From contig OX597816.1 of the NCBI GenBank assembly GCA_951406725.2, positions 44,144,001-44,208,000 on the forward strand: 64,000 bases of DNA. The letters run 5' to 3'. Position numbers and translations under genes: made by a program. The DNA comes from Octopus vulgaris (taxonomy: Eukaryota). How positions within the stretch are numbered: position 1 is the first letter of the stretch; every line of letters begins with the position of its first letter. This document shows positions 774-64,000 of this stretch, piece by piece. The notes under the pieces were generated by a model. The model did no database searches. It worked only from the letters and a program-made list of their open reading frames with translations, and was not told where the DNA came from.

Positions 774-2182
774 CAGTTGCGGCCAAAATGTTCAGAACGA
801 AATTGTTTTCGTCAGAAAAGTAAGTATAAGTTTTTACCAAAGTAGTTTTATATTCTAGACATACAATATTAATTGTTATTGTCTGAGATTTTGGTGTAAT
901 TTGAGAGGATACTACAAAAGTTATGGATGATTTAGTGATTTACTGCAAAACCCATGGCGGCCAAAATGATCAGAACGGTTGAAAATATAAAAAAGATAAT
1001 CAAAAATTACAGAGAATACTGGAATTATTTAATATTTAGTGTGAAGCCCTTTAGCTTCAATCACACTCTGACATCTTCGACTGCATGAGGAAATTAAATT
1101 TTCAATTTCTTGCTGGGTTATCTTATTCCATTCTTCCTGAAGGGCTTTCCATAATTGCTCAGTTGTTGTAGGATTTCTGGCTTTCAAACGTTCTCCTAGA
1201 ATATTCCATACATTTTCAATAGGATTGAGATCTGGGCTTTGAGCAGGCCAATCCATAACAATAACCTTTTCAGCCTTGAGGAAGTTCATGACCACCTTAG
1301 CCTTGTGACATGGGGCATTGTCTTGCATGAATATGGGTGAATTTCTCAGCACAGGCAAGACATGATCTTTTACAAGTTGTTTATAAACTCCTGCATTTAC
1401 CTTTCCATGTAATCGCACCAAAGGGCCCACACCATCTCCAGATATCATCCCCCAAATCATGACACTTCCTCCACCGAATTTAACACTAGTCATAAGGCAT
1501 TTAGGTGACAATTTTTCACCTACTTTTCTACGAACGTACCTTTTCCCATCTGAGCCAAATAACATGAACTTAGATTCATCACTGAAATGCACCGTTTGCC
1601 ATTTTTCTTGAGACCACTACACATGTTTGGTTGCAAAGGTAAGACGACACTTTTTATTCTTGGAGCTGATCAGTGGCTTCACTGCAGGTACTCTTGCTTG
1701 TAGGTCATGTTCAACTAAACGACGAGACACAGGTTTTCGAGATAAATTTTTCTTCAATACAGTGCTCTTTTTCCGAGAAACAGCAGCAGCAGTTTTAAAT
1801 CTGTCCTTTTTAACCAACTTTACCATAGCACGATCTTCTCTCTTGGTCGTTTTTTCTTGGCCTACCTGTAAACTTTCTTGCTTCACACGAACCACAATCA
1901 TCGTAGACCTTAAGAATACCGTGTACAACACTTTTTGACTTGTTAACAATCTTTGCAATAGATCCAATACTTAAATTATCCTTCCTTCGAAGCTTAATAA
2001 TCTGCTGACGAATTGGTAACGGGGGTAAGTGGCATTATATTAACAAAGTACACTGCAAATATTCTTACTAACGTTTAGTAAACGAACCGTCACGTAAACA
2101 AATTCAAAACATTAGAGTTCGCCGGTTAAATATACTAAAACACGGAGTAAAAGCAACCGTTCTGATCATTTTGGCCGCCATG
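774..2182 (-). mobile_element. Tc1-family DNA transposon with IR/DR ends; upstream end truncated
   Basis: TA|CAGTTGCGGCCAAAATGTTCAGAACG at 774. Inner repeat CATGGCGGCCAAAATGATCAGAACGGTTG at 953-981 has its exact reverse complement at 2154-2182. A transposase lies between. Confidence 0.93.
1029..2035 (-). pseudogene. Tc1 DD34E transposase, disrupted
   Basis: Motifs FSDESKF, GGGSVMIWG, QDNAPCH and WPAQSPDLNPIENVW, with 34 residues between the second D and E. Probable ATG at 2035, frameshift near 1855, in-frame TAG at 1617-1619. Confidence 0.93.
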
Positions 2183-40084: not shown

Positions 40085-40730
40085 GTAGCCTGAAAGTGTA
40101 CTCTGCTATAACAAACTTGAGAGTATTGACCACATTATTGCCGGTTGCTCAGTCCTTACTCTCCACAGAATATAAAACCAGGCATGATCGAGTTGGCCAA
40201 TACTTGCACTGGAGCATGTGTCGTCACTATGATATCCCGCACTCCAAGAACTGGTATGAACCCCATCCAAAGCCAGTTACTAAGGAAGAGAATGTTACCA
40301 TCCAATGAGATTATGGGATACATACAGTCAGCCAAATAAGTGCTAACACTCCAGGCATCATCATAAAAGACCTAAGATAAAAACACTCGTTAATTGAGAT
40401 AGCAGTGCCCACAGACAGATACATCTCAACAAAGGAACATTAAAAACTGTCGAAATATAAGGACCATGAGATTAAGATATCTTAGACGTGGCAATTAAAT
40501 ACCAAAACAGTCCTTGTTGTTGTAGGTGCCCAGGGAATGATCAAGAAATGTACTGACGAATTTGTTGACCAGATTCCTGGGAAACCAACAATCTATGAGA
40601 CTCATAAAAATGTGTTGACATCAACGGTGCACATTTTCTGGAAATTTTTGTCCATCTAATATATACGTGCCTCCTTACTCTGGTGGAGATCCGGTCGGAA
40701 GGTGAAGTAAAATGCAAATCAATCGGAAAA
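40085..40730 (+). mobile_element. R4/Dong-like LINE 3' fragment 2
   Basis: EYKTRHDRVGQYLHWSMC, NWYE.HPKPV, KLSKYKD, PVVVGA.GMI. Confidence 0.88.
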
Positions 40731-40749
40731 TAATAATTTTCATTATTAT

Positions 40750-40970
40750 TATTTTAATAATCTTTTCTACTAAAGGCCTGAAATTTTGGAGGTGGGGAGC
40801 GATTAGTTCATTGAATCTACCTCAGTATTTTCTTGGTACTTAATTTATCCACTCTAAAAGGATGAGAAGCAAAGTCGAACTCGGAGGAATTTTATCTCAG
40901 ATCATAAAGACAGCCGAATACAGATAAGCATTTCGCCCGGCGCAATAATGTTTTGTCAGCTCACCGCTTT
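40750..40970 (-). mobile_element. SINE family B
   Basis: Reverse complement of family B, ending GCTCACCGC. Confidence 0.82.
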
Positions 40971-41332: not shown

Positions 41333-42051
41333 TGTCGTCTCCAAATGCAGTCTTCTAGCGCCTACAGAGTACCTCAACAAGCATCATAGAGCTGCACATA
41401 TATTCACTGGGTAATCTGCAAAAACCTGGATTTGCCCCATGAAAAAAACCGGTGGGAACACAATCCACCTCCAGTGCTTGAAAATGACCACATCTCACTC
41501 CTCTGGAACTTCACCATTCAAACTGACAGAAAGATAGATGCAAATAGGCCAGATATCATATTGAAAGACTTCAGACAAAGAACATTCCTCCTCATTGATA
41601 TGACTGTCCCAATCGATATAAACGTATCTGTCAAGACCTACCAAAAACTGAGCAAATATAAAGATCTTGAAATAGAAATCAGCAAAATGTGGAACCTGAA
41701 GACTAAAACAATACCTGTTGTCATAGGTACCCTGGGAATGATAGCGAAAGGGGCTGATTGCTACCTAACTCAGATACCAGGAAACCCCAAAATGGCAGAA
41801 ATTCAAAAGATAGTGCTCATGGGAACTGCTCATATCCTACGCAAAATACTCTCTATGTAATCCCAAGGGTTAAAACAAACTTTTTTTTAAAATTTATGTA
41901 TTAGACATTCACTAGTACAACACCAAAAAAAAAAACCCAAATATATGGCACGCTAGGCATAACAACAACGTGAACCTCCAACCTGTTGTCTCTTGAGGTC
42001 TCTGGGTGAGACTTGGAGCCAACTTGTACAGACATAAAGCAAAAGTCAAAC
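41331..42051 (+). mobile_element. R4/Dong-like LINE 3' fragment 3 (best preserved; RLE ORF 41432-41860)
   Basis: LLWNFTIQTDRKIDANRPDIIL...LIDMTVP...KLSKYKDLEIEI..MW...IPVVIG.LG, a PD-(D/E)xK restriction-like endonuclease. The 3' UTR is followed by an (AAT)n tail. Confidence 0.94.
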
Positions 42052-43360: not shown

Positions 43361-43729
43361 AAATTCCTCCGAGTTCGACTTTGCTTCTCATCCTTTCAGA
43401 GTGGATAAATTAAGTACCAAGAAAATGCTGAGGTCGATTTATTGAACTAATCGCTCCCCACCTCCAAAATTTCAGGCCTTTAGTAGATAAGATTATTAAA
43501 ATAATAATAATGAATATTATTATTTTCCGATTGATTTCCATTTTACTTCACCTTCTGACCGGGTCACCACCAGAGTCACGAGGCACGTATATATTAGATG
43601 GACAAAATCTTCCAGAGAATGTGCACGGTTGATGTCAACACATTTTTATGAGTTTCATAGATTGTTGGTTTCCCAGGAATCTGATCAACAAAGTTGTCAG
43701 TACCTTTGTTGATCATTGACTGGGCACCT
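43361..43729 (-). repeat. Inverted duplicate of 40524-40892
   Basis: Reverse-complement alignment over ~370 bp, crossing a LINE-tail/SINE junction. Roughly 90% or more identical by eye. Confidence 0.92.
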
Positions 43730-44896: not shown

Positions 44897-44938
<42 letters not shown>

Positions 44939-44939
44939 G

Positions 44940-45600
44940 ACATGACAGTGTCAGCCAGTATTTACACTGGACAATATGTCGGTATTGTAAAATCAAAACC
45001 GCTGACAAATAGTATAAACACCATCCTGAAGCTGTGGCTGAGGGAGAAAATGTGTCGATTTTATGGACACTTCTCCGTACATACCGACAAAGCTATAAAA
45101 GCTAATAAACTGGATATTATTATAAAAGATCAGATAAAAACGGTGTGTTTATTAATTGACATGAGTATCCCTAGCGGTCACAATATAGCGGCGAAAGAAT
45201 TTGACAAGATCAGTAAATGTAAAGACTTGCTGATAGAAATTGAAAAAAAATGTGGCATCTCAACGCGACTACAGTACCAGTGATTGTAGGAGCTCTAGGA
45301 ATGATACAAAAATAGAAAAGGTACTCAAACCTATTTGAAAATGATTCTAGGCTTACGACCCCTACAGGAAGTGCAAAAAATCATTTTAATTGGAAAGACT
45401 CATGTACTGAGAGGAGCATTATCGCTGTGAAAACAACATCCATTCATGAATTTATTTATTTATTAATTTTTTTAATTCATATTTTACCTGTGGATTTGCG
45501 TGTGGAATCTGGAAATGCACACGATGACCTTCTCTGCCCTAGGTGTACTGAAATCACTCGGCGAGAAATGGAAGAAAATTTGAAGAAGAAGGAAATAAAC
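44940..45600 (+). mobile_element. R4/Dong-like LINE 3' fragment 5
   Basis: HTDKAIKANKLDIII...LLIDMSIP...KEFDKISK.KDL.IEI, PVIVGALGMI. Confidence 0.88.
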
Positions 45601-54259: not shown

Positions 54260-55300
54260 AGTAAAGCACGTAGGTTGTATTGCTGGAGTTATGGAACGTG
54301 CTCTAAGACATGAAGTAACAAAAGACGTTCGATGATCTCAGAGGTATAATAAGGTAACAAAGACATTTACGGCCTTTGACGGGTACAGGTTTGCAGACTT
54401 CAAGCATATTTGGCTGCTGTCCTCCAGGCGGTTGCTTTGGAGCCCAACTTCAGAAGCTGAATCACTGATGTGTACAGTGTCATTTGCTCGATGGTCGTGC
54501 CCCCTTCCTCCTTATGTATGTGCTGACTTTAATCAATACTGTAGATTTGGGAGGCTTCGAGGGGTATCGCTCAACAATTAACCTACAAAGGATAATCTTG
54601 CATATGCTTGCAACTTCAATTAATAGCGTCGGACTCCAAACACATGAAAATGTTGGCATTACTGTAAGCACAATACGAAGTGGTAACAGGAGAAAAATTA
54701 ACTAGCAGATCAACACCTAGAGACGCAGGACCACGTTATCCAACAATATGTGGTAATTCTGCAGTGTAGTTTGTACACAGGGTATCTTCAGGTACGGCAG
54801 TGCGGACAATTTATAGAGCAGTGGTGATGGACAAGATCTATGATATGTTTGGCGAAATTCTGTGCATCAATTAAATTCAACTGGCAGGTCTTTTTGAAAG
54901 GAGTTTGAGGTCTGGGAGCATGGAAAACTTCCAGAAATCGCTGGTTTGGCTGTGCTACCTGGGTGAGAGAGATTGCGATTCCGAGATAAATTCTAAAGAC
55001 AAGTTAATGTCGTAACCCGAGATTTCAGCAGAGCGACAAAGCCGTCTTTCTCATGCTTGCATAGTAATTCGAAGATTTCTGACTTGAAGTTAAGTTGCAT
55101 AGCTATTATCACATATATGATGGAACCGGCTATCAACCAATTTCGTACCTCAATGCCTTCCAGGTTTCTTCTGTTTCATGACTGTTGACAACAGGACATG
55201 TGATGGACGAGACTGAAACAACTAAATTTAGACATTGCTTTCTCACCAAGCATTCAACGAATTTTTCAAGTTCCAGATGAAAAAGAAAGGCGAGGGTTGT
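54260..55300 (-). mobile_element. Possible highly decayed BEL/Pao LTR-retrotransposon pol fragment
   Basis: Only weak remnants in plausible order: KPAIS (NPAD), EV....II....V.R, PVPVKG, TSCLRA. Confidence 0.35.
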
Positions 55301-55471
55301 GACGGAGGTAATGCCCCCGTTGAACTTGTTAAAAGGTAGGTGAATGTAGCAAGGAATGGCGGAACATTACAGAGGAGAGAGGAGGTGTTGCCTCAGTATT
55401 CCTTTTGAGCAGGGTAACTTGGAATCTAGGGGTATTCATTGTCACCCTTGGGTGATATTTCCTTCTTATTA

Positions 55472-55832
55472 CTCTTTTTATTATTTTACTTGTTTCAGTC
55501 ATTTTGACTGTGGCCATGCTGGAGCACCGCCCTTAGTCGAGCAAATCTTTGTAAGCCTAGTACTTATTCCATCGGTCTGTTTTGCTGAACCACTAAGTTA
55601 CGGGGACGTAAACAAACCAGCATCGGTTGTCAAGCGATGTTGAGAGGGTGGACAAACACAGACACACAAACATATACACACACATACATATAAATATATA
55701 CATATATACGACGGGCTTCTTTCAGTTTCGTCTACCAAATCCGCTCACTAGGCTTTGGTCGGCCCGAAACCATAGTAGCAAACATTTGCCCAAGATGCCA
55801 CGCAGTGGGACTGAACCCGGAACCATGTTGTT
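55472..55832 (-). mobile_element. SINE family A, head-truncated
   Basis: Matches 26422-26843 up to GGGACTGAACCCGGAACCATG. Confidence 0.92.
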
Positions 55833-55942
55833 TGTCTATTAATTTCATTTGCTCCTAAATGTTAATATATATATAATTTCACACGCATCTTTGTCTTTTC
55901 ATATTCTGTAAATTTTTTTTCACCTCTCGGGCCAATAAAGAA

Positions 55943-56001
<59 letters not shown>

Positions 56002-56036
56002 TATTATTATCATCATCAACATCATCATCATCATCA

Positions 56037-56089
<53 letters not shown>

Positions 56090-56138
56090 TTTATCATTAT
56101 TATTATTGAGTGAGAGGGCAGTATACCCATCATCATCA

Positions 56139-56733
<595 letters not shown>

Positions 56734-56863
56734 CATTATTATCATCATTATTATTATTATTATTATTTTTGCTGTTGTTGTTGTTATTGTTCTTTCCCTC
56801 GGGTATCTCTTGCACCTTATATTTTGGTAGACTTGCTTTCAGTGTTATATACATGTTTGTACA

Positions 56864-56949
<86 letters not shown>

Positions 56950-57857
56950 GTATGTAAAGACACACACATATGCGAGCGTACTTGTGATTGCATATATTTA
57001 GTTGCTTCAGAAAGATAGCAGGAGAGTGTTTCAAGTTTTCATTATAGGTCTACCTGTAAAACGGATTCATGCAACATCGAAACTAAGTTTCCTTTGAAGA
57101 AATTGATAATCATTTAGATGTAATCGTTTTCTAACCTTTAACCGCTAGAAGTAAACTCCAAGATCAACCTCGAAGAAACTAGATGAAAATGAACATAATT
57201 TCATTTACAATTTCATTGAAAGCTTGCAATAAAGAACTGTGTTCGCCAATCATCTCTCTCTCTCAATAGTATTGATATAGGTTTTAGCGCGAATGATTTT
57301 TAATTTGGATGCCTTAGTCGGAAATGGAATCGTATTGTAACTTGTTAGACACAGTTACGTTATTAGGTCAATATGTCGTTATCGGTTTCATCTAAAGGTG
57401 AATAACTCGTCAGAATTAAACGATTTCCAATTTCTGGAATAGTAACTCAATTTCAAAGACACTAGGTTTCCTATACGGATTTCACAATATTAATTAAATT
57501 CCTTTGAATAGGTTATTATTGGTAGTTTCAGCCTGTAAAAGCTTTCCGATTGTGAAAGAGGAAAATAAAAGCAGTAGCGACATTTTCTTTTCTATTATAG
57601 TTAAGGGATATCTGAGTAGTTTGAGTAACATAGGAACACTGTTTAATGAATCTAAGGTATTTCTGTTGAAGTGTTACGAAATCTTCGTTTCGAGACGCAA
57701 AGAAGTATCATATATATCTCTCTCTTTCTCTTTCTCTCTCTCTCGCTCCCCTCCCCCACACATATATATAGTGGAAATTTACAGAGAAACAAAGACGAAC
57801 ACAGGTGCACGAACAACAAGCAGGTGTATTGTATTGATGCTCGGGAAAGTGAGGAAG

Positions 57858-57895
57858 TATTTGACGTTTCGAGCTTACGCTCTTCAACAGAAATA
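57858..57895 (-). ncRNA. Minimal hammerhead variant (CUGUUGA plus extra A) in a PLE-like fragment at 57768-57925
   Basis: Minus strand TATTT-CTGTTGA-A-GAGC GTAA GCTC-GAAA-CG-TC-AAATA. Stem I differs from the 30733 copy but still pairs. Confidence 0.65.
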
Positions 57896-58292
57896 AATAA
57901 GAGAAAATATACGGAGAGAGAATAAAATAAACTGATCTATACCATCTGAATAACAGTTTTTTAAATTTATTTTTAACTAAACAGTTTGAAAGTTCGAATA
58001 ATGGTAGAATTTCTCACGTAGAAGACGGTTTATTCTGAATGTTTTTGACAAAATTTCCTATTTTACAAGTTATTTCGTGTTAAAGATGTCGTATCGGGAT
58101 AATTTCAACCAATTATGTTACCATTCACAATCATCTTATATTTTATCTACGCATTCGCACAAGTGATATGAACAAATCCACACATACACAAGCATACGTA
58201 CAGAAATGCAGACATATAAAAATATACTTATATGTGCCAATATGTCTAGATTTGCTGATATATATCTATATTCAATATAAACATAAATATCT

Positions 58293-58355
<63 letters not shown>

Positions 58356-59409
58356 TGTGTGTGTCTGTGTAGTGAAGAATTACTACTTGCGATGAAATAA
58401 ATAACGTTTAACCAGAGATTAGAACACCATATATATCCTTGTATATTCAAATTCCAATCAAGTATTAAACAATTTGTGATAGTTTCTTATGGTGTTGTGT
58501 AAACTTGAATAAACCCTAACCAAGTTTCAATTTCCCCTCTCTACAGCATTCTAAAACCATTTAATATTGTTAAGTTAAAATTTTCTTTGACGACTTCTTA
58601 GGTAGTTGAGTTATCTTTTCCCACAGATATCCTCACAACAGTAATTCTTGTTGGGGCTGCCTGCTGGAGCCTATGCGGCAGGTATTTAAAGGGAAAACTT
58701 TGACAAGACAGTCAATCACCGGCTGACACTCGCTGACGATACATCGAAGAGGCCAGGGAACATAAGAAAGAAGAAGAAAGAAGACATGCACCCAACGCCA
58801 GAGCTGAAGACACCTCCGAAAGGGAGGGGGCCGCCACGTCAAAACGGTAGAGGAGTAGGGACTGAAACCGGACGTAGTTCCTCCTGATGATGTCTTGAGC
58901 TAACTGGTTCCTATAAAGGAGTTGTTGTGGTAGCAGACCACAAAACACGCTGGTAATTCCTCGTTTCTTTCTCTCTTTATTTCTCTGATAAATATAATAA
59001 TACCATGCTCTTTCTAAACTATTAGATGAATAAGGTTTGTTTTTTTCCCGTTTTTAAAACATTTTATGCACATTTCCAATTTAGCTCTGTCAGCCAGCCT
59101 ATAATGAGTAATAATCCTGAAATTTGGGGTATGGGGATTAGTCAATTACATCGACTCCAGTGTTTCACTGGTACTAATCTTATCGTCCCCGAAAGGATGA
59201 AGGGCAAAGTTGACCTCAGTGGAGTTTGAACTAGGAGCATAAAGGCGGACGAAATGCCGCTAAGAATTTTTATCCGGTGCGCTATGTTCATTACTAATAT
59301 TCGTTAGCGAAAAACGTGTAAAGATTATATGATTTATATTATAATTAAAAATGAACTAAATGTCGTATACATTCGATATATTGGACCGGGATGTGTGTTG
59401 TGTTCTTTA

Positions 59410-59650
59410 TTTCACATTCTCCAATTCATACAGTTACAGAAATTAGTCGCGACCTCACTAGTGCCAAGCTGTATCGGCCTTTTCCCTTCGCTTGGATAAC
59501 ATCGGTGGCGTGGAGAGAGTAGCTTATATGCATGGGCAACTTTTGATCTTCCATAAACACTCTTGCTCGGACTCGTGCCTCGGAGAGGAACTTTCAAGAT
59601 ACAATCCCATGGTCATTCATGACCGAAGGGGTCTTTACCCTATTTTTACC
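59410..59650 (+). mobile_element. Probable SINE/LINE 3' end with RTE-like tail
   Basis: Ends CCCATGGTCATTCATGACCGAAGGG...TTTACCC, a stem-loop plus short repeat tail. Confidence 0.45.
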
Positions 59651-59667
59651 CTGTAGGTATGTATATT

Positions 59668-59740
<73 letters not shown>

Positions 59741-59744
59741 TTGT

Positions 59745-62376
59745 ATATAGTAACACACAGGGAGGAATTTCGATTATCCGAACGTGGTGAGTTGCAATAC
59801 TAAAAATATTTACATGTATTTAAATAAATATTTGCATAGCTTTAATACATTTTAAAATATATTTTATATTGTGACTGTGTTTGTCGACCGGTTTCGCTTT
59901 CGCTAATCATGACATTGAAAGTATTGTAATTTCGTATTTTCTTAAGAAGATTTTAGTCCATGTTGTGTGTGGAGAAATTAACGAATGAGTGATTCAACAA
60001 GTAGAAAAATCTAAGAGAGTTTAGTAATTGGTGATCGTTATTATAAGAGGAAGATAATTATTTCTGTTTTTAAAAAGTGATTCATCCTCATTGTCGTAGT
60101 CAGTTGGTGCTTCTGTGAATCGTATTTTTCAGCAGAATTCCGAAATATTGTCTTTAATTTCATTCTGGTTAAATCTTCGTGGGGTTGGGGTAAACTTTAA
60201 TCCTATAGCTAGTAAACTGATTTTTTTTGCAGCTAGAGTTTTCTTTGATAAACTTATTACTTTGAGTTTCTCTTATATGCTTTGTTTCAACGTATGTCCC
60301 TGTTTCTCTCAACGCGGTCTAAAAAATGTTTACTGTAGAAGTCATCAGTGATTCGTTGAAGTTATCAGGGTTATTATTGTTATTAATTATATTAGGACTG
60401 TTGGGAGACTGATGTTGTTGTCTGGGTAAATTGGTTGGAAGTACGTGCTTTAGGTTTCTTCGTTAGAATAAATCGTTGGGATTCTTAATTATGTTTGAGA
60501 TGCTGAGGAGTTAGTTTTGCTGTCTAGGTAAATAAGCTGGAATTCCGTAGGTTGAGTTTCCTTGATGGGGAGTAGAAGTTCCTTGGACGTTACTAGTTTC
60601 TGGGGAGAAATAGTTACGCCTAACCCTAGGTTGGTTTCTTCTAGTATTTCTTATTACTGAGTTGCCACTATTACTAGATTGAAAACGGTTTACTTCCACG
60701 TGAGAAGTTAGTTGTGTGTGTTTGTGTTCTTTTAGATGCTTATAGTTTGTTTTTGCTCTGGATTTTTTTCAGGAAGGAGTTATCTGAAATATAATCTCTA
60801 TTACACTGAGTTTCGAAACTAAGGACGAAATTAACACTGTTTTCCTCCCGTTGCAGGGAATTTATTTCTTCCAGCTCACAGCTGCCCTTCCATAGATTTA
60901 TAACAGCTTCCAAAAGTTGTTCATCAGTATGTTTAGTGAGTTCGGTGTACATTTCTTCATCGATCGCTTTATATTTTTGCTCGTTATTCGATGCTCTAAA
61001 TTTAAGTAACTCAATCTCTATTTTCATTTTCTCTAGTGCTAATTTCTCCCTGGCTGTCTTTGTTGTTCGGGCTTTTCTGAGATTGGTTTGATTTGTAGTT
61101 TGCGTGGGGGAATTAATGGTGCTGAGTTAATCCATTTTCATATATTTCTGCATTATTATTATTTTTTATTATGTTAGAGCGTTATGGTTTTGGGACTAAA
61201 TATGGCTAATGCGGCTATTAATTAAATGGGCTGACATTGAAATATTTTCATTATGGCTTAGGTATTTGGGTGATAATTCTTTTTCAAAATTGTTCATGAA
61301 AACTGAGTGCAATGTTCTGCATAGTTCGTTCAAATTTTGACTAACCTTCTCAGTAGATCGTCTTCTCTATTCATTTTCAGCTTCTTCTCTGGTGCAGTAA
61401 CTTAATCCACAGATTTTGTTAGAATAAATAAATTTGAGTTACTTGTGTGTAATTCCCTCAATATGTCCTCGTTGATAATTTTATCCGATGTGTTTATGGT
61501 AGGTTTCGAGGCATTTTCCGTTCACGTGTGGTAAATAGTAGTAAAACAAAAAGAGGAATTGCGATTATCTCCACGTGGGGTGTTCAAATATCACAAATAT
61601 ATACATGAAATAAAAGAAGTAAAATGCAGCTACTTTACATCATTATATATGTTTTTAAATACATTTTATATTGTGTTTTTCGACCGGTTTCACTTTCGCT
61701 AATCATGACATTGAAAGTATTGTAATTTTAGTCCGTGCTGTGTGTGGAGAAATTTACAAATGACTGATTCAACATATAGAAAAATCTAAGAGGAGGTAAC
61801 TGGTGATCGTTATTATTGGGGACGGGGGAGGTAATTGCTTATCTTTCTAGGAGGTGATAATATAAACAAAAAGTCAAAAGGTAAAGTAATGAGTTGAAAT
61901 ATGTACAGTGCTGGGTATATGATCATGAATTAAAATATATATTAAGATCAAAGTTGGTTATGCGTTCATATTTAGACGTGTTCTGCATTTTTCGTTGAAC
62001 AATTTTTTTTATTTAAAGTTCCTGTTATAAAAATTGTTTCTTTACACGCTGAGATGAGGAAAACTGTGAAGTTTGGTTGGATATTATCTTCACATCTCTC
62101 TATGTATTCACTCAAAGGAATTTATGTGTATTGCGGGAACCGGATGTGTTCCTTATGTAGTGTGGTTCTTCATTTTAATGGCATACTTGTCTTTTCTATA
62201 TAGTTATGCCCACAACCTCAGCAAGTTATAGCATAAATTAGATTCTCGGAAGCACGAATCTTCTTAAGAAAATACGAAATTACAATAATTTCAATGTTAA
62301 GATTAATGAAAGTGAAACCGATCGACAAGCACAATATAAAATATATAAAAACTATGTAAAGTCCCTGCATTTTCTT

Positions 62377-62380
<4 letters not shown>
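59745..62380 (-). mobile_element. Penelope-like element, partial tandem with inverted 5' pLTR, RT deleted
   Basis: Direct repeats at ~59762-60045 and ~61553-61816. ORF remnant from ATG 61514 including KVISLSKKTL....ISLL..GLKFTPTP. GIY-YIG remnant SENLIYAITC.GCGHNYI..T...L..R...H at ~61950-62255. Inverted pLTR piece at ~62257-62346. (TA)n on both flanks. Confidence 0.9.
59882..59914 (-). ncRNA. 33-nt minimal hammerhead with A3-U8 core (AUGAUUA)
   Basis: Minus strand TGTC-ATGATTA-GC GAAA GC-GAAA-CCGG-TC-GACA. Repeated at 61678-61710 (-) and degenerate at 62295-62327 (+). Confidence 0.75.
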
Positions 62381-62465
<85 letters not shown>

Positions 62466-63384
62466 GGAGGTAGGAGAGCGACGGATGGCTCAATGGATGG
62501 ACAGATAGATAGATTCTAATAATGATCTCATAGATATAATTTGAGTTATAAAGTCATAAGACTAAAAAGATTACTCAGAAAGAATGAGAGACAGACAGAG
62601 AGAGATACACGTTGATATGGCTGATAGGTAGAACAAACTCCAGTGTTGTTACAGAGTCAAACTATTGGCCGATAAATACATTGTATATGATAAACACCGC
62701 ACACACACACACACATTTACAAGCATGCGCAGACGCACACACAGAGACACACACACATATACACAATCACGTATGCAACCCCACACAATGAAAACATTTA
62801 TAAAATCTTTTATGTTCTAAACTGCGTAAACATGGATCTCTTTGGGAAACTAATTCGTTCTGTTTCTATCTCCGAAATAGAAAGAAAGAAATTGTATGAA
62901 ACCGATGCTGTAATTAACAGAGATAGATAATGTTCTTTGATTAATAGCTTGCTATATACTTTGTCTGTACATTGAATACTGCACATAATTATAGGTTAGA
63001 ATTTATTTTAATTAATGATAACTTTTGCCTTCAAAAACCTGACAGAAATGAAAAAAATAAATAAAAATGCTCATCTCCGAATATAACTTTAGATTAATTA
63101 TTTTCTTATCGAAGTCATCATGGCTGTTGTTGCTGCTGTTGCTTCTGTTGTTTTTGATATTTTTAGTTTTGAATCGGTAGAAAGTTGAACAAAAATGCTC
63201 TTCAATATGTGTTCAGGTTTTGTACGTTCTGTGTTCAAATTCCAGCAAGTTATACTTTGCCTTTCGCCCTTAAGTTTCAGTGACGTAAAGTGCCAAACAA
63301 GTACTTGAGAGTTTATTTAATCGACCAGATATCCTCCAGATTTCTGGCTTTGGGTTTCTGTCAGAATGTATCATTATTATTATT

Positions 63385-63739
63385 CAGTAGTTTTATTTTT
63401 ATATCGTGCTTTCACTTCACTACCGAGCGCAGCTCTGTGTGCCTTGGGTATGTGCTGTGGTTTGTCGTGATGCTCATATGGTTATTGTACGGAAAGTGTT
63501 TTTGTCATACCTAATGCGCCTACTATGATAGGAATTGTCTCTGTTTTTAGATTCCACATTCGAGTTACCTCTGTTTCGAAGTCTTTGTAATTTGAAAGTT
63601 TCTCCATTTCTTTTAGAGAAACGTTGTCATCTGCTGGTATTACTACATCAATCAGAAAGCATTTTTTTCTTCATGATCTCTGACAACTATATCTGGCCTA
63701 TTGGCCTTAATTTCTCTATCTGTGTGTATTGGCATATCC

Positions 63740-63740
<1 letters not shown>
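63385..63740 (-). mobile_element. R4/Dong-like LINE 3' fragment 6
   Basis: PADDNVSLKEMEKLSNYKD.E.EVTRMWNLKTETIPIIVGALG, adjacent to (TTA)n at 63741-63788. Confidence 0.85.
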
Positions 63741-63789
<49 letters not shown>

Positions 63790-63790
<1 letters not shown>

Positions 63791-64000
63791 CTGAGCTGTA
63801 AGAAACGTTAGCACGCTGGATGAAATGTTTAACGGTATTTCGCTCGTTTCTACATTCTGAGATCAAATTTCGCCTAGGTCGATTTTGCCTTTCATCCTTT
63901 CGGGAGCGATAAAATAAGTACCAGTTGAACACTGGGGTCGATGTCATCAACTCATCCCCTCCCCTAATACTGCTACCCTTGTGGCAAAATTTGAAGCTAT
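63790..64000 (+). mobile_element. SINE family B
   Basis: GAGCTG.AAGAAACGTTAGCACGC...GTCGATTTTGCCTTTCATCCTTTCGGG...CACTGGGGTCGAT. Confidence 0.88.

Follow-up and report, generated by a model that had tools for sequence, protein, structure and literature searches.

An A3-U8 hammerhead motif and its core-pair variants in the terminal repeats of a putative Neptune-type Penelope-like retroelement

Structure of the locus

The window analysed here is a stretch of 64,000 nucleotides of Octopus vulgaris DNA (assembly GCA_951406725.2, contig OX597816.1, positions 44,144,001 to 44,208,000), and coordinates are counted from its first letter. Its segment 59,745-62,376 holds the remains of a Penelope-like retroelement read from the minus strand. 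The downstream terminal repeat (pLTR), made up of the 3' UTR and tail, occupies 59748..60044 (-) and recurs as a direct repeat, the upstream pLTR, at 61542..61816 (-), with 73.5% identity between the two, gaps included. The frameshifted N-terminal part of an ORF lies at 60048..61134 (-), the RT core and endonuclease of this unit having been deleted. A broken remnant of a C-terminal GIY-YIG endonuclease at 62002..62253 (-) belongs to a 5'-truncated upstream unit; it is 62% identical to the ORF of a related A3-U8 locus (L333) and ends about 290 nt before the hammerhead. Next to it is an inverted, 5'-truncated pLTR fragment (62257..62396, +). Upstream inversion is usual in Penelope-like insertions, and the layout is that given in the legend of Fig. 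2 of Craig et al. (2021, PMC8557442). The element adjoins a (TA)n microsatellite at 59652..59740, and a second one lies at about 62385-62460. The low identity of the direct repeats indicates either that the insertion is old or that the two units came from different templates. The inverted fragment is 85% identical to the downstream repeat, which is above the value for the two direct repeats. What is left at this locus is a decayed fossil, and activity as an element is unlikely.

Two related loci (L159 and L333) have open frames of 635-649 aa that contain the RT, a Cys-rich linker and a GIY-YIG endonuclease. The L159 frame matches RVT_1 at E=4e-6 and GIY-YIG at E=0.005, both under Pfam's cut-offs, and its homologues carry both domains. 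The linker (CX2-5CxxC) is present between RT and endonuclease in L159 and L135 and matches the Neptune rows in the available part of the supplement to PMC8557442. Judged by this linker and by the layout of a single ORF with an RT and, at its C terminus, a GIY-YIG endonuclease, the element is probably of Neptune type (PMC8557442). Named homologues of the ORF include bivalve proteins. Several Penelope-like ORFs (P0027, P0043, P0049, P0060, P0067 and P0077) are filed under bacterial gill symbionts of bivalves, and these are likely to be host DNA in the assemblies.

The hammerhead copies

The downstream pLTR carries an intact minimal type I hammerhead motif at 59882..59914 (-), which is a real feature of this DNA. 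Read on the minus strand, its 5' part consists of a 4-bp stem I, the core AUGAUUA and a 2-bp stem II with a GAAA loop, and its 3' part of GAAA, a CCGG insert and the GUC site, after which the predicted cut falls between 59886 and 59885. The core residues U4, G5, A6, A9, G12, A13 and A14, the A15.1-U16.1 pair and H17 are complete; the same residues are invariant in the 13 subfamily representatives described below and are kept in copies picked by their protein. The literal C3 and G8 of the CUGANGA consensus are replaced by A3 (59910) and U8 (59905), which make a Watson-Crick A-U pair. Published motifs too depart from C3/G8, as natural U3-A8 hammerheads are in print (PMC4209133, PMC3088659), so pairing rather than the identity of the two bases is taken here as the defining feature.

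The second copy, in the upstream pLTR at 61678..61710 (-), lies 1,796 nt from the first; motifs are spaced 3,977 nt apart in L338, a full tandem relative, so about 2.2 kb has been deleted from the unit in the window. In this copy A3/U8 is retained, but 10.1-11.1 is a G-U wobble and stem I contains one mismatch, leaving only the first copy intact, and a scan of the whole window with a generic motif and perfect stems gave the 59882-59914 copy as its sole match. A third copy, inverted and degenerate, is found at 62295..62327 (+); it retains A3/U8 and has lost U4 and G16.2. The motif thus stands in both the direct and the inverted repeats of the Penelope-like element. A first-pass annotation of the sequence had reported the core AUGAUUA with A3/U8 in both direct repeats, and the persistence of these two bases in the inverted copy, and both observations hold, the former in the minus-strand reading. 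Its description of a 2-bp stem II, a GAAA loop and a GUC site fits the first copy. Its stem III needs amending: the CCGG is present, but it cannot close within one molecule, being part of the palindromic 15.2-16.2 segment, ACCGGU, which would pair between two copies. Among the three stems expected of a type I hammerhead, stems I and II are therefore present and covary across subfamilies, and stem III is predicted to be intermolecular only. It had further been supposed that standard searches would overlook the motif. The core is incompatible with CUGANGA, and an Rfam scan of 55000-64000 at E<=1 returned 13 matches with none to hammerhead families, which agrees with that supposition.

Distribution of the A3-U8 state

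Matches to the motif were counted across the 2.8-Gb animal genome in which the window lies. With the stems fixed and positions 3, 7 and 8 free, A3-U8 was found in 45 of 53 matches and C3-G8 in none. A looser pattern with the same positions free gave 1,110 matches and its reversed control 0, so the family motif is not a chance occurrence; A3-U8 was present in 1,021, and the 14 matches changed at both 3 and 8 comprised 13 with U3-A8 and one with C3-A8. Selection by endonuclease protein alone, independent of the motif, yielded 30 loci out of 150 scored, of which 27 have A3-U8 and the other three were without a motif call. In these 27 copies the hammerhead follows the endonuclease by about 260-350 nt and lies upstream of the next ORF. 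A protein-picked set for U3-A8 behaved similarly, with 26 of 30 copies keeping U3-A8. C3-G8 is absent from all three A3-U8 sets (53 exact-flank, 1,110 looser and 30 protein-picked). The proposal that A3-U8 is a family-level state is thereby borne out: A3-U8 prevails when genomic copies of the pLTR are compared, and a C3-G8 consensus was not seen in any copy set.

Contigs from four public runs with four organism codes were also aligned to 59770-60060 at 80% likeness. Positions 59910 and 59905 were invariant among the 40 contig rows listed, and position 7 was variant in about one fifth of the depth in three runs and in most of the depth in the fourth. A search of metagenomes with the A3-U8 pattern gave 16 matches, each with at most one stem I pair, and these were read as chance.

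Covariation of the 3:8 pair

A broader count covered motifs with a 2-bp stem II, a 3-7-nt loop and CCGG, by exact patterns only, so that the numbers are lower bounds. The genome contains 3,888 motifs of this architecture, and the control pattern gave 2. A-U occupies 3:8 in 1,138 of them, U·G in 199, G-C in 89, G·U in 21 and C-G in just 2; a further 111 are unpaired, and U-A, obtained by subtraction, accounts for 2,328. The two positions are paired in 97% of motifs, as against about 54% expected under independence, though the copies cannot be counted as independent events. Motifs with an unpaired or G·U 3:8 occur with many different loop types, as expected of decay after insertion, and the full lists of the 111 unpaired motifs contain no sign of an amplified family with an unpaired 3:8. 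The U-A, G-C and U·G motifs are located behind endonucleases of the same lineage.

These counts bear directly on the idea that the motif is a chance look-alike inside a repeat. Such a view could appeal to the Rfam result and to a length of just 33 nt, but controls of 0-2 matches against 1,110 and 3,888, the fixed place behind the endonuclease and the covariation of the stems reduce its probability almost to nothing.

Two subfamilies of the same family illustrate the exchange most closely. Over 623 nt, L254 (G3-C8) and L310 (A3-U8) share 89.9% identity, and the motifs picked for them differ at positions 3 and 8 alone. Among 13 subfamily representatives, 3:8 is paired in all 13 (A-U in six, U-A in four and G-C in three), a count that leans towards pairing given that the representatives were hand-picked by motif pattern with U·G families excluded. 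All six pairs of stem I change on both sides in this set, and 95.8% of cells are paired, compared with 25-40% in slid controls. It is likely, from these sequence comparisons, that the 3:8 pairing itself is what is kept. The swap had been described as a compensatory change, and the occurrence of U-A and G-C at the same positions in relatives supports this. A one-step swap from C3-G8 is not what the data show, however: C-G is found in just 2 of 3,888 motifs, and one family contains both G-C and A-U subfamilies at about 90% identity, so that the closest relatives of the A3-U8 motif are G-C and U-A rather than C-G.

Protein phylogeny and changes of state

A protein tree was built from 301 columns spanning the RT thumb, linker and endonuclease, with 28 rows chosen for coverage and ORF homologues as outgroups. 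Three clades are supported: the A-U families to which the window belongs (100/100), a mixed G-C/A-U family (100/100), and the U-A and U·G families (99/99). Mapped on this tree, the 3:8 state requires at least five changes, and U·G appears in two separate places. A3-U8 is found in two separate protein clades, and a single A3-U8 clade, a group named after earlier trees, was rejected (p-AU 9e-5). The window A-U clade and the G-C/A-U clade were sisters at bootstrap 100 in two earlier trees, a grouping not settled in the 28-row tree.

A C3-G8 sister family was considered as a canonical outgroup. Its pattern gave 7 matches (control 1), of which 3 fell in family G, and family G was dropped from this role because it is mostly U3·G8 (17/27, with C-G in 2/27).

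It might be argued that the ribozyme is degenerating without selection, and that A3 and U8 arose as two neutral changes whose pairing is coincidental. Retroelement bottlenecks can fix linked neutral changes, and the independent events are few, at least five changes of state on one tree. A neutral origin nonetheless seems very improbable, since 3:8 forms a Watson-Crick or wobble pair in all amplified subfamilies observed, G-C and A-U alternate within one family (L254 and L310), A3-U8 occurs in two separate clades, and the core is fixed although the adjoining 3' UTR cannot be aligned from one clade to another. Retention of the pair across several double changes speaks for selection acting on the active fold.

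Little-diverged and older subfamilies were distinguished by branch lengths and search identities. The loci L283-L302 and L338 form little-diverged U3·G8 subfamilies in which one base on the 3' side is missing, so that 2.1 is unpaired; L338 (G000:C1:70847500-70854000) is a complete tandem unit, its ORF frameshifted. An older family (L178-L202), mostly U3·G8 (17/27), has a loop II of 3 nt and an additional base separating stem I from position 3; it stands in a separate branch from the younger U·G group and shows the same trait pairing.

Folding and catalysis

The preferred reading, to which we assign a probability of about 0.7, is that the A3-U8 type I motif in this Neptune-type terminal repeat self-cleaves slowly, as a dimer or with the aid of protein, with A-U in place of C3-G8. 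Self-cleavage of the motif is a prediction. In a nearest-neighbour model, the monomer of the window copy has a hammerhead fold at +1.9 kcal/mol and a misfold, in which A3 pairs with U16.1, at -4.2 kcal/mol. For two copies, the same model gives the hammerhead dimer the lowest energy (-16.5 kcal/mol), stem III being formed by the ACCGGU palindrome. The hammerhead dimer was lowest in two of the six families folded, and a different dimer was lower in the other four. Dimer cleavage at low rates has been published for min-HHR motifs (PMC4209133; PMC6765202). In the predicted arrangement, two copies would pair through the palindrome to build stem III between molecules, and the cut after GUC would trim a tandem transcript to unit length.

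In established hammerhead chemistry G12 acts as the general base, and the 2'-OH of nucleotide 8 is considered to act as the general acid (PMC6155905). From this chemistry, the base at position 8 would serve mainly to place its ribose through the 3:8 pair, and another Watson-Crick pair could replace C3-G8 because the 2'-OH of nucleotide 8, rather than its base, would act as the acid. Przybilski and Hammann reportedly found in 2007 that any Watson-Crick pair is active in two type III ribozymes. That work is cited for the activity of covariants by Perreault (2011, PMC3088659), where 3:8 covariants are active in vitro and 2-bp stems II common. When all double mutants of one type III hammerhead were scanned, the swap to G-C alone rescued activity and the other double mutants of the region were low; the 3:8 pair is described in the same paper as a feature of the active conformation (PMC9901934).

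The most serious competing explanation is that the hammerhead fold, including 3:8, is kept as a structural signal, either a binding site for the RT-endonuclease or a mark of where reverse transcription starts, with cleavage negligible or dispensable. The hammerhead of a lizard (Poseidon) element cut only with the element's protein, its ribozyme mutants were without effect on insertion in vitro, and no RNA-seq ends were found at the cut site (PMC11167929, available part). The mutant result speaks for a purely structural role, as do the low activity of an A-U swap in the one mutational scan (PMC9901934) and the spread of U·G subfamilies despite the unpaired 2.1. The pattern of conservation is the one expected for catalysis, however: U4, G5, A6, A9, G12-A14 and A15.1-U16.1 are fixed, whereas variation is seen at position 7, in loop II and at position 17 (C/A), and the 3:8 pair belongs to the active conformation (PMC9901934). 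On balance a structural signal is an unlikely explanation, albeit one carrying appreciable weight, and slow, assisted self-cleavage is preferred. Fast cleavage is another matter. The young U3·G8 subfamilies amplified well, with 199 U·G matches in the genome, and in the older family G most copies have U3·G8 and stem I is poor; these two observations hint that the element can do without fast cleavage, and the spread of the U·G subfamilies argues that the demand on the active fold is loose.

Relation to known hammerheads

The 2017 study by Lünse is said to be the largest survey of small Penelope-like hammerhead variants. Natural A3-U8 or G3-C8 hammerheads were not found in the literature searched, in which spellings of the pair with a colon or slash went unmatched, and that survey may contain them. 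The variants of Lünse et al. (RNA Biol 14:1499, via PMC6765202) resemble the present motif in their short stem III, dimer cleavage and element class. The motif is also like the minimal hammerheads (min-HHR) that Cervera and De la Peña (2014, PMC4209133) described from metazoan Penelope-like elements in being of type I, in its pLTR location, in its short stem I, in a palindromic stem III that needs a dimer and in keeping G10.1-C11.1. It differs from min-HHR, as described in the available text, in its A3-U8, or G3-C8 in relatives, and in having a 2-bp stem II and no extra base, where min-HHR has a long helix II and an additional base separating 9 from 10.1. A U3-A8 variant with about 1,300 matches in Schistosoma is reported in the same paper, and the 56 motifs of its Fig. 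S3 comprise 53 with C3-G8, two with U3-A8 and one with U3·G8, and none with A3-U8 or G3-C8. The natural core variants of Perreault (2011, PMC3088659) share covariation at 3:8, stems II down to 2 bp and weak palindromic stems III; unlike in the present lineage, U3-A8 is the sole natural covariant named in the part available, with no purine-3/pyrimidine-8 pairs. The available text of PMC13725137 contained nothing on the 3:8 pair. In endonuclease-bearing clades such as Neptune, canonical hammerheads have been called universal (Craig et al. 2021, PMC8557442), whereas C3-G8 is nearly absent here.

The literature thus already contains hammerheads of Penelope repeats, their cleavage as dimers, stems II of 2 bp and natural U3-A8, and A3-U8 alone is a modest addition. 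The stronger observation is that a single lineage, nearly devoid of canonical copies, uses four pair types, which provides evidence from nature for the pair. It is possible, though we put it at somewhat below even odds, that a lineage in one genome left C3-G8 and cycled through U-A, A-U, G-C and U·G while active, and that its members include the first natural A3-U8 and G3-C8 hammerheads.

Crystal structures and mutants established the 3:8 core pair of the hammerhead, and the mutant studies are at odds over which swaps function. A lineage with a wobble and three Watson-Crick pairs other than the canonical one, on an otherwise fixed 33-nt scaffold, makes this question directly testable with short RNAs, and it bears on whether Penelope hammerheads need to cut at all. 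About 3,900 such motifs in the genome, a lower bound, escape CUGANGA searches, which exceeds the 1,462 raw matches (control 228) to the canonical C3-G8 core, these latter belonging to other families with longer stems II. If the lineage did cycle through these pairs while active, nature has provided a series of variants of the core pair, and CUGANGA descriptors overlook such ribozymes by the thousand; for that reason, some Penelope-like families reported to lack hammerheads may have ones with swapped cores.

Other observations

Other hammerheads of the genome include a large family (L075-L103) whose minimal hammerheads have the canonical C3-G8 and a stem II of 5 bp; in L082 and L083, a distant Penelope-type RT remnant lies upstream of the canonical hammerhead. 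A tandem repeat of about 359 nt (L090-L096, G000:C1:20000778-20006042; also C1:67409518 and 67409876) is retrozyme-like, with one hammerhead per unit. Such arrays have C3-G8 in some cases and U3-A8 in others, on a near-identical scaffold.

Elsewhere in the window, a 195-aa frame at 1029-1616 (-) is, judging from its motifs, presumably Tc1/mariner transposase-like. An inverted repeat of 369 nt with 93% complementarity (40524-40892 and 43361-43729) lies around a 156-aa frame at 41390-41860 (+). We take this frame to resemble the restriction-like endonuclease end of a non-LTR retrotransposon, with a similar remnant at about 44900-45280.
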